Below are positions 59,600-61,216 of a DNA stretch of 64,000 nucleotides, piece after piece. The position numbers and the translations under genes were made by a program. Within the stretch, counting starts at the first letter, position 1, and each line of letters starts with the position of its first letter. The notes beneath the pieces are model-generated. The model searched no databases. It had not been told where the DNA came from and saw only the letters and a list, made by a program, of their open reading frames with translations. Source of the DNA: a virus (Duplodnaviria; Caudoviricetes); the IMG/VR virus record IMGVR_UViG_651324008_000005, positions 2,777-66,776 of that record. One strand, written 5' to 3'.

Positions 59600-61216
59600 A
59601 TGGGTGCGAAGCCATATGCCCTCTACAACGAGAACGACGAACACGCCGCAGATTGGCTCGAAAACCTTATTGCCCTTGGAGTCATTGCGCCGGGCATTGT
59701 CGATCGACGAAGCGTCGAAGATTTGCGTGGGGATGACCTTAGAGGATTTCGACAGGTTCATCTTTTCGCTGGCATCGGAGTGTGGAGTTACTCCCTCCGT
59801 CGCGCTGGCATCTCGGATGATACTGCAGTTTGGACTGGAAGCTGCCCCTGCCAACCTTTCTCCGCGGCAGGCAAAGGAGCAGGGATGGATGACGAGCGGC
59901 ATTTATGGCCTGCGGTCCTCCATCTCCTCGGAGAGTGCCGCCCTGACATCTTTCTTGGAGAACAGGTTGCAAGCGCTGACGGCCTCGGTTGGCTCGACCT
60001 TGTACAAACTGACCTGGAAGCGGCGAGCTACGCCATCGGGTCGGTTGATACCTGCTCTGCGGGCAGTGGCGCACCGCACATCCGGCAAAGACTCCGTTTC
60101 AGTGCCTACGATATTCGATCTGCCTCAAGTCGGCGATCCGACCTGTCGATCCTCAGACGGGACTTCGGGTCCGGATTACGCGGGAGGATTATCGCTTCCG
60201 ACAACAGCACAATTGTCGAACTGGGGAACTCCCACGGCGACGGAACCGGGCGGAACGGCCGAGGCGTATGTCGCTCGCTCAATCGAAAAAACGGGGAACC
60301 TGGCGCCGACGATGCTAGCGCATCAAGCGCCATTGGCGGGATGGACTACAGCTTCAGCGAGGGACTGGAAGGATTCCGGAGCGGACATATCTCCGAGACC
60401 GGACAACGGCAAAGAGCGACTGGATCAACTCCCACGACAGGCGAATTTGGCCGGTTGGCCGACGACAGATGCAAACATGGGATCGGGAGGCCGGAAGCCG
60501 AAAGACCAACTCAAACTCGTTCGGGAGAATGGCAGCAAAGTCCAGTTTACGATCAATCATGCTGCATTGTTGAGCGGCTGGCCCACGTCGACGACGACCA
60601 ACAACGGCAAGGGCGAGACACCGGAGGCGCGTCAGGCGAAGGGATTTGGTCTGAACCTCGCGGACGCGACGAGTTTGACGGGATGGTCGACACCCACCGT
60701 GGCGGAGAGGGAGCGACGACCGGAAGTGATCGAGAAGATTGCACGGGATCGCCTCGAGAAACACGGTCAGACGACAGTGCCGCTCTATCACTGCGAACAG
60801 GCTCAATTGGCCGCGTGGCAGACGCCGACACTGGACAATTTCCGGAAGAGGGGCGGGGATCGCAGCGACGAGTTGGGGCCGCAGGAACTGGTCGACTGGA
60901 CGAAGGTGTCTTTGTTGGCCGAATTGAACGGCCCGGCCCGACTAACGGCTTTTGGCGAGATGCTGATTGGCTCTTTTGCCGAGATGGAAAGTGGCGGCCA
61001 GTTGAGCCCTGCACATTCCCGTTGGTTGATGGGGCTGCCTTCCGTTTGGGATCTGGCAGCGCCTTTGAAGGCAAGTCGCGCCAAGGGATGCTCAAAGGTT
61101 ACGGGAACGCCGTCGACGCGGAAGCGACGCGCGTCTTCATTGAGGCTTGTGCCGACTTCTTTGCTGATTTGGATGCTCGCCGCGTGAAGGCGGAATTGAT
61201 TGGAGACCTGCTATGA
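59600..61216 (+). CDS. C5-cytosine DNA methyltransferase, alpha (catalytic) polypeptide
   Basis: Motif [37 protein letters not shown] and X LKGYGNAV; motif IX absent from this frame. Confidence 0.9.
59889..61187 (+). CDS. Overlapping-frame beta polypeptide of the C5-MTase (motif IX plus six W-x-T repeat modules)
   Basis: AAAGGAG SD at 59873-79, 9 nt before ATG 59889; 432 aa open in the +1 frame; motif-IX-like [18 protein letters not shown] near its C-terminus. Confidence 0.8.

Follow-up and report, generated by a model that had tools for sequence, protein, structure and literature searches.

Two overlapping reading frames in a phage methyltransferase gene

The window, as we call the whole 64,000-nt stretch of DNA analyzed here, is taken from a virus of the Caudoviricetes (Duplodnaviria; positions 2,777 to 66,776 of IMG/VR record IMGVR_UViG_651324008_000005) and contains a gene for a DNA cytosine-5 (C5) methyltransferase that is open in two frames on the same strand (Table 1). 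Frame A encodes the catalytic chain, alpha; the +1 frame contains an open reading frame (ORF) of 527 codons (59604..61187) that is open alongside it across the gene and includes a predicted second chain, beta, whose stop codon is 29 nt upstream of that of alpha. The proposed start of beta, ATG 59889, is located behind a Shine-Dalgarno (SD) sequence, AAAGGAG, with a 9-nt spacer. An initial annotation, made by inspection of the letters and their ORF translations, had located this SD sequence, the ATG, six Trp codons of a repeat array, and a motif-IX-like end in the +1 frame; when we re-checked the sequence, all of these coordinates were correct.

Table 1. Features of the two-frame methyltransferase gene (coordinates in the window).
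Feature	Coordinates	Strand	Description
Alpha coding sequence (CDS)	59600..61216	+	538 residues, frame A; C5-methyltransferase catalytic chain, that is, core, long linker, and motif-X helix
Alpha folded catalytic core	59600..60133	+	residues 1-178; motifs I, IV (PCQ), VI, and VIII; predicted local distance difference test (pLDDT) score 75-96
Alpha linker	60140..60946	+	about residues 181-449; R/G/D-rich, unconserved, predicted disordered, stop-free
Alpha C-terminal conserved segment, motif X, and terminal helix	60947..61213	+	from conservation and AlphaFold
SD sequence of beta (AAAGGAG)	59873..59879	+	formed by alpha Gly-Lys-Gly codons
Beta CDS (predicted)	59889..61187	+	432 residues from ATG 59889
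Beta N-terminal conserved domain	59889..60083	+	overlaps alpha motifs IV-VIII; predicted helix and beta-hairpin
Beta array of six L..GW.T(P) modules	60186..60830	+	modules 35-44 residues apart; purifying selection in the beta frame
Beta motif-IX-like segment	60996..61049	+	overlaps the conserved alpha C-terminal segment; columns nearly invariant

By its motifs IV, VI, VIII, I, and X, alpha is assigned to the DNA cytosine-5 methyltransferase (PF00145/Dcm) superfamily; its PHROGs family is phrog_363, 'DNA methyltransferase' (3e-70). Motif I (LFAGIGV, residues 55-61) is at 59762-82, motif IV with the catalytic PCQ at 59840-78, motif VI (LGEQV) at 59954-68, motif VIII (HIRQRLRF) at 60077-100, and motif X (GYGNAV, residues 500-505) at 61097-114. 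In Pfam, PF00145 covers only the IV-VI region (residues 77-146, E 1.9e-9); an alpha profile aligns with residues 71-172 of M.HhaI, that is, motifs IV-VIII, in a stretch that includes PCQ, GEQV, and PHIRQR (E 2e-14). The AlphaFold model, built from a 55-sequence alignment, is confident for the core, except in the catalytic loop, and for the C-terminal helix (residues 507-537); residues 181-455 have no structure (pLDDT 28-47). Foldseek with this model retrieves M.HaeIII, M.HhaI, the CP-933R prophage methylase, and the DNMTs (probability 1.00, 170-200 aligned columns). Neither motif IX nor a folded small domain (the target-recognition domain, TRD) is found in alpha, in which residues 181-455 are unconserved and predicted to be disordered. 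The initial reading of frame A as a C5-methyltransferase with motifs I, IV, VI, VIII, and X, without motif IX, and with an R/G/D-rich middle is thereby borne out by the motif positions, the M.HhaI alignment, and the structure prediction. Conservation resumes downstream of the linker; in the family alignment G450, W452, D454, A455, D456, W457, D462, R466, Y501, G502, and N503 are invariant.

The order of motifs in the first 87 residues of alpha (59600-59860) looks permuted: a II/III-like stretch precedes motif I, which is only about 25 residues ahead of PCQ, and AlphaFold folds the region confidently. The usual I-II-III-IV order is found in two relatives, YdiP of Paenibacillus phage HB10c2 and gp47 of Mycobacterium phage Graduation.

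Evidence that both frames code

For the window gene taken alone, the openness of the +1 frame exceeds chance by only a modest margin: about 6 stops are expected in this frame from synonymous shuffles of alpha, and the observed open run reaches 528 codons as compared with a maximum of 482 in 300 shuffles. The strength of the case for dual coding instead comes from comparison with related loci. When the two translations are searched by tblastn against phage genomes, both match the same genes; for example, the alpha match in epsilon15, Aeromonas phage AeroV_348, and EBPR siphovirus 2 is to the annotated frame and the beta match is to the +1 frame (E 1e-36 to 1e-43). We then gathered loci with one frame and asked about the other. 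In 80 viral loci collected with alpha-frame peptides only, beta matches the +1 frame in 80/80, and this frame has no stop from at least 68 nt before the codons for the catalytic Pro-Cys (PC) to between -116 and +31 nt of the alpha stop, or past it. Conversely, in 80 loci from bacterial genomes (Alpha-, Beta-, and Gammaproteobacteria, Desulfovibrio, Flavobacteria, Planctomycetota, and Lentisphaerae) collected with beta-frame peptides only, the N- and C-terminal parts of alpha are found in the -1 frame in 80/80. Beta-frame stops in homologues, named in the initial annotation as evidence that would speak against a second gene, are not what we find: 160/160 related loci have an open, homologous +1 frame. 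Two of the bacterial-genome loci, in prophage regions of Pseudomonas saxonica (L103) and Consotaella salsifontis (L112), have an interrupted alpha frame (19 and 195 residues) with beta intact, perhaps because the copies are decaying or the assemblies contain errors.

To locate the selection in each frame, we classified 1,373 substitutions in 12 close pairs of genes (81-97% nucleotide identity, including the window and its relative L004) by their effect in each frame and compared the classes with all possible single changes; alpha position 1 is beta position 3. The pattern changes along the gene (Table 2). Upstream of the PC codons and downstream of the beta stop, the differences are distributed as expected for alpha only; between motif VIII and the conserved GFWRDADW segment they are distributed as expected for beta; and in the two remaining regions both frames are conserved.

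Table 2. Nucleotide differences between close pairs, by region of the gene.
Region	Differences at alpha positions 1/2/3	Frame(s) under selection	Remarks (observed relative to all possible changes)
Alpha start to PC	25/16/155 (155/196 at position 3)	alpha only	nonsynonymous in alpha and synonymous in beta, 0.23x
PC to motif VIII	58/21/68	both frames	lowest rate, 4.8%
Motif VIII to GFWRDADW	402/216/183 (402/801 at beta position 3)	beta	nonsynonymous in alpha and synonymous in beta, 1.69x; synonymous in alpha and nonsynonymous in beta, 0.66x
GFWRDADW to beta stop	50/14/68	both frames	
After beta stop	21/23/53	alpha only	

The same regions are identified at larger distances. Using synonymous codon resampling in 26 diverse genes as the null, beta identity between PC and motif VIII is 0.56 as compared with an expected 0.31 (z ~6.7, 298 pairs). 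By column, the excess conservation of beta is about zero upstream of PC (-0.02 to +0.05; +0.12 in the first window of columns), jumps to +0.28 to +0.46 at the PC motif region, and stays positive through motif VIII (+0.16 to +0.46 over the downstream range); the upstream region is an internal control and shows that synonymous sites are saturated at such distances. In the middle region the alpha sequence is not conserved, and its reading frame is: 49/49 non-redundant loci have 0 stops as compared with 164 expected from synonymous shuffles of the beta codons (in the window, 0 as compared with 8.7, P(0)<1/300), from which we conclude that translation of alpha continues across this region in a single chain. 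The G+C content at third codon positions in this region is 0.66 for the beta frame and 0.55 for the alpha frame; that of the neighboring genes is 0.64-0.70. We conclude that beta as a real, selected coding frame is strongly supported by region-specific purifying selection on both frames.

The beta start site

We compared the start region of beta in 126 non-identical loci anchored on the alpha PC motif. The beta frame reads (A/S)(S/N)LS(A/P)RQAKE.G(TTG/W)(L/ATG)TSGT(Y/F)G; an ATG, GTG, or TTG is found within two codons before TSG in 102/126 loci and within six codons in 110/126, and an SD core of at least 4 nt is upstream of the beta start in 108/126. At the start column, the alpha Phe codon is TTT 87 times and TTC twice, as compared with a background of 27% TTT in the same genes; TTT at this column makes a TTG in the beta frame. 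The window has the ATG version of the column.

An unusual relative provides a second line of evidence. In EBPR siphovirus 2, gp44 (L003:1750-2860, JF412297.1) has an intein of about 370 residues between the C and Q of the alpha PCQ; the beta frame is closed only inside the intein, reopening 150 nt before its end, a pattern that agrees with a beta start just downstream of PC. On these sequence comparisons the start of beta is most likely ATG 59889, and we infer translation from this codon. The initial proposal that the +1 frame is a genuine gene starting just past the catalytic PC is therefore favored both by the selection pattern and by the conserved SD sequence and start.

We also asked whether beta could start, in the family as a whole, at an ATG located 113 nt upstream of PC (59733 in the window), and we rejected this: the codon varies, with ATG in 27 loci and ACG in 24, and beta shows no excess conservation ahead of PC. 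In the clade of the window (L004-L009, L011, L013, L014, and L016) the beta frame is open from the alpha start; this openness is not beyond chance (P0 ~0.45 per gene), and in the last 130 nt before PC the substitutions are mixed (33/7/36 at alpha positions 1/2/3, small counts).

Domains and modules of beta

Beta begins with a conserved motif, MTSG.YG ... LRA..RTS, in the region of excess conservation (+0.16 to +0.46). The array follows, with the Trp codons (TGG) of its six modules at 60222, 60342, 60456, 60579, 60684, and 60816; around each of them the sequence reads L..(G/A/N)W.T. Using a strict module pattern on 55 non-redundant genes, we count 0-6 modules per gene (mode 2), with the window at the maximum; module count and beta length are correlated (r = 0.77). 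The closest relatives of the window have nearly identical flanks and different arrays: L005 is without the last module, L009 is without the first three, and in L004 the segment that joins modules 3 and 4 is a different one. The array is thus expandable, as the initial annotation had supposed; it expands, contracts, and swaps modules between close relatives.

The C-terminal segment of beta resembles motif IX of two relatives outside the family. Graduation gp47 is a short single chain with motif IX (EFYEWLMGLPRGW) and motif X in the core frame; beta matches its motif IX at 8/17 positions (E 0.005 in this single comparison). In Gordonia phage Float294, gp62 does not extend beyond motif VIII; motifs IX and X, preceded by three LLPTP modules, are in a +1-frame ORF (annotated gp61; open from 1298), and here the match is 8/13 (E 0.024). 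These similarities support the assignment of the beta C-terminus as a putative motif IX and of beta as a displaced small domain.

Other searches with beta returned little. The profile has no match among PDB sequences at E<=10, Pfam and NCBIfam give no match, and in the ESM Atlas only unnamed viral clusters are found; when the low-confidence model of beta is compared with 48,161 PDB chains, the highest Z is 3.8 and involves only the N-terminal helix-hairpin, a result that is uninformative. By these sequence and fold searches beta has no detectable similarity to the TRD of any solved methyltransferase.

A large family with inconsistent annotation

From 1.84 billion representatives clustered at 50% identity, the beta profile retrieves 18,153 clusters with E<=1e-3, of which 7,904 have E<=1e-30. 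The top matches have no Pfam domain and are named 'hypothetical'; in the protein-database searches with beta the names were only 'hypothetical' or 'uncharacterised', and no named EcoHK31I protein was among them. The group spans Proteobacteria, Desulfovibrio, Bacteroidota, and Planctomycetota, with a diverged form in Firmicute phages; its smallest members have an alpha of about 300 residues and a beta of about 200. These comparisons show that the nested two-frame layout, as predicted from sequence, is the norm among a very numerous set of orphan methyltransferases in phages and prophages. The initial statement that this phage combines a nested chain with tandem modules overstates how special it is; the gene belongs to a very large family (~18,000 clusters).

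The Firmicute version is represented by HB10c2 YdiP and Lactobacillus phage Lc-Nu ORF40, which are dual like the window: their +1 frames (open for 236 and 184 residues, respectively) match the beta hidden Markov model at 5e-14 and 1e-4, contain KMT(V/A)TSG, and end in GQLNPDWVECLMGFPIGWTD or AAEFQETMMGFPKGWTD. With the HB10c2 +1 frame as the tblastn query, matches are obtained in the proteobacterial phages N15 and BcepC6B and in the Xanthomonas phages (E 7e-5 to 2e-5); these matches connect the Firmicute form with the proteobacterial one.

It had been anticipated that standard annotation would miss beta. This holds for records in which only alpha is called or beta is 'hypothetical', and not for some GenBank records in which both are called; e.g., Xanthomonas phage PhiXhv-28 has two overlapping 'DNA methyltransferase' CDSs in different frames. 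Many Paenibacillus phage records have two methyltransferase features under the match, possibly in different frames. Beta is likewise already present in PHROGs, where it matches two 'DNA methyltransferase' families, phrog_31772 (1e-30) and phrog_1008 (2e-28), and in the ~18,000 beta-like clusters produced by gene callers. For the label 'Mte8-like' on a PMG1 homologue we found no trace in the literature.

Comparison with known two-chain and multispecific methyltransferases

C5-methyltransferases are usually treated as monomers, and M.AquI and M.EcoHK31I as curiosities (PMC3404938). M.EcoHK31I requires both an alpha and a beta chain, with beta encoded wholly inside the alpha gene in another frame; internal Met codons of beta are usable as starts, and N-terminal deletions weaken the association (PMC2836561, PMC3404938). 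The window has in common with M.EcoHK31I (and M.EaeI; YGGCCR) a beta ORF nested in alpha in another frame, and the motifs are divided in the same way, that is, I-VIII and X in alpha and IX in beta, with the motif IX call in the window coming from a short match. The layout recognized in the initial annotation (a nested beta, an alpha without motif IX, and a beta ending in a IX-like segment) does match the published arrangement; the likeness is one of layout. Lee et al. are said to have described, in 1995, an M.EcoHK31I alpha of 309 residues and a beta of 176, which are close in size to the smallest members of the present family. Unlike M.EcoHK31I, the window has a beta of 432 residues with six modules and is an orphan phage gene without a restriction partner; the variable region of its alpha appears to be a disordered passenger of beta, and the selected modular region is in beta.

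Two other systems are partly similar. The M.AquI type (alpha with motifs I-VIII, beta with IX-X) also consists of two chains split after motif VIII, and the Float294 gp62/gp61 locus resembles this type; in the window, however, it is the alpha frame that has motif X, and beta, which is nested, stops at 61187 without it. The multispecific methyltransferases of SPR, phi3T, and rho11s are single chains with several TRDs, each with a mapped target. As in these, motif IX in the present family is immediately preceded by short tandem modules, the number of which varies; in contrast, the modules of the window share one motif (L..GW.TP) and are on a separate +1-frame chain, and the likeness is positional only, without similarity in sequence or fold. 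The initial view of the array as a set of specificity modules finds no support in these comparisons. The gene is, then, a further case of a published layout, one of thousands, at the six-module extreme. Our literature search, with most subscription journals outside its reach, found no paper on the family, its selection pattern, or its size.

A putative two-chain enzyme

We consider it probable, by analogy with M.EcoHK31I, that the gene specifies a two-chain enzyme in which alpha is catalytic and beta provides the recognition domain and motif IX. Alpha would be the large catalytic domain, with the S-adenosylmethionine (AdoMet) loop, the PCQ nucleophile, the ENV-like and QRR-like motifs, and the GNA helix (motif X), and with a predicted disordered linker of about 275 residues where other C5 enzymes carry the small domain. 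Beta, started at ATG 59889 in the +1 frame behind the SD sequence in the alpha Gly-Lys-Gly codons, would supply an N-terminal helix-hairpin, a variable W-x-T-P array, and motif IX, that is, the small-domain parts that alpha is without. The two chains would then assemble into the active enzyme, as was shown experimentally for M.EcoHK31I, with beta as the likely specificity determinant. The gene neighbors are a DUF2800 PD-(D/E)XK nuclease, an Enc34-type single-stranded DNA-binding protein, an Rv2179c-like 3'-5' exonuclease, and an SNF2 helicase; among them a restriction enzyme is absent, and because this replication module is without a nuclease partner the product would act as an orphan methyltransferase in the protection of the phage DNA.

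A bolder proposal is that beta is the whole DNA-recognition domain and that its W-x-T-P modules are exchangeable, so that their gain, loss, or swap would retarget the enzyme; we hold this to be possible and, on balance, doubtful.

Several observations weigh against the two-chain enzyme as just described. The literature places the TRD of M.EcoHK31I in alpha, and we would place it in beta for the window. Beta has no match in PDB or Pfam, so the TRD and motif IX call rests on a similarity of 13-17 residues and on position. Modeled alone, beta is poorly folded (pLDDT 59), with a predicted template-modeling score of 0.27 and confidence only at residues 10-60 (the helix and hairpin, pLDDT 73-89) and in the motif-IX region; this might be expected of a chain that folds on its partner or on DNA, or may simply be uninformative. 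A canonical start is missing from the two columns before TSG in 24/126 loci, and from the six codons in 16/126, so the initiation site is not universal; also, in the clade of the window, a longer beta isoform may start at ATG 59733.

An alternative is that beta is translated and independent, that is, a phage protein with a separate role (e.g., DNA binding or anti-defense) that is overprinted by chance on the methyltransferase gene. The lack of Pfam, NCBIfam, and PDB matches would then be understandable, as would an N-terminal domain and W-x-T-P modules that resemble nothing characterized, and the conserved C-terminal segment of alpha might serve as a minimal recognition element. We nevertheless judge an independent protein unlikely: wherever we find beta, alpha accompanies it in the same relative frame (80/80), alpha has neither motif IX nor a folded small domain, the IX-like end of beta is in frame in single-chain relatives, the Float294 +1-frame ORF joins PTP modules with motifs IX and X, and M.EcoHK31I shows that such a pair can work as one enzyme.

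A single chain made by two programmed frameshifts (from frame A to B after motif VIII and back after motif IX), with no separate beta, would also restore the canonical motif order, and a metagenomic ORF, P0367, is an alpha-beta-alpha chimera of this kind with a PF00145 match. Frameshifting is nonetheless improbable, more so than an independent beta, since the alpha middle is kept stop-free (0 as compared with 164), which frameshifting makes unnecessary; beta is selected from PC on, about 70 codons before any needed shift; the SD sequence and start near PC are conserved; and P0367, which is without motif VIII, looks like the indel product of a doubly open gene. P0367 itself (350 residues, from an ENA metagenome cluster of 4) has motifs I-VI, then beta from LRQRASVRRTS through motif IX, and then RLKGYGNAI; as evidence for a natural single chain it was set aside because motif VIII is missing.

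That the +1 ORF is a non-coding by-product of the composition or conservation of alpha, or of sequencing errors, is scarcely credible: single-gene shuffles give only about 6 stops, so that long +1 frames are not very rare, but in the middle region the frame with conservation and purifying selection is that of beta and not that of alpha, the same test gives no +1 excess upstream of PC, and the pattern is found in 160 independent assemblies from many phyla.

With the two-chain enzyme as the preferred interpretation, the main interest of the family lies in the scale and cleanliness of the overprinting and in the possibility that specificity resides in the hidden chain. The annotation of such genes is systematically incomplete or inconsistent (alpha, or beta as 'hypothetical', rarely both), and predictions of specificity from alpha alone would fail. 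If beta is the whole recognition domain, with exchangeable modules, phages would diversify their methylation specificity by shuffling modules that have to be open in two frames, and the TRD assignment in M.EcoHK31I would need revision; these genes would also be among the longest and most widespread same-strand overprinted pairs in double-stranded DNA phages (0.6-1.3 kb, ~18,000 clusters at 50% identity). The family also offers a clean natural system for the study of two proteins that evolve on the same nucleotides, as well as naturally split, modular methyltransferases for engineering.

Other overlapping methyltransferase genes

An 'apparent total overlap' of two C5-methyltransferase ORFs was described in the 5093 group of Streptococcus thermophilus phages (McDonnell et al., 2017; PMC5601072), and earlier cases of overlapping ORFs are pneumococcal phage MM1 and Tn5252 (PMC5601072). 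Among the matches listed in our beta-frame tblastn searches from Lc-Nu and HB10c2, no Streptococcus phage is present. The MM1 locus (L173:7480-8637) differs from the window in that ORF13 is a complete single chain with motifs IX and X in frame; ORF14, an annotated +1-frame ORF of 141 residues over motifs III-VIII, contains MTLFEES..SVEDFRARLSA and ends in ..SLSDILEEEVDERYFLS. ORF14 is unlike beta, and as a candidate homologue it was rejected because it fails to match the beta profile.

In four loci of the family (L010:2769-4547, L021:2486-3811, L022:2781-4217, and L089 2198-4102) the beta frame runs 200-300 codons past the end of alpha and enters an apparent downstream gene. Three of these extensions share similar ends (...L(S/G/A)E(V/I)P.D.(L/I)G..KA..D...).

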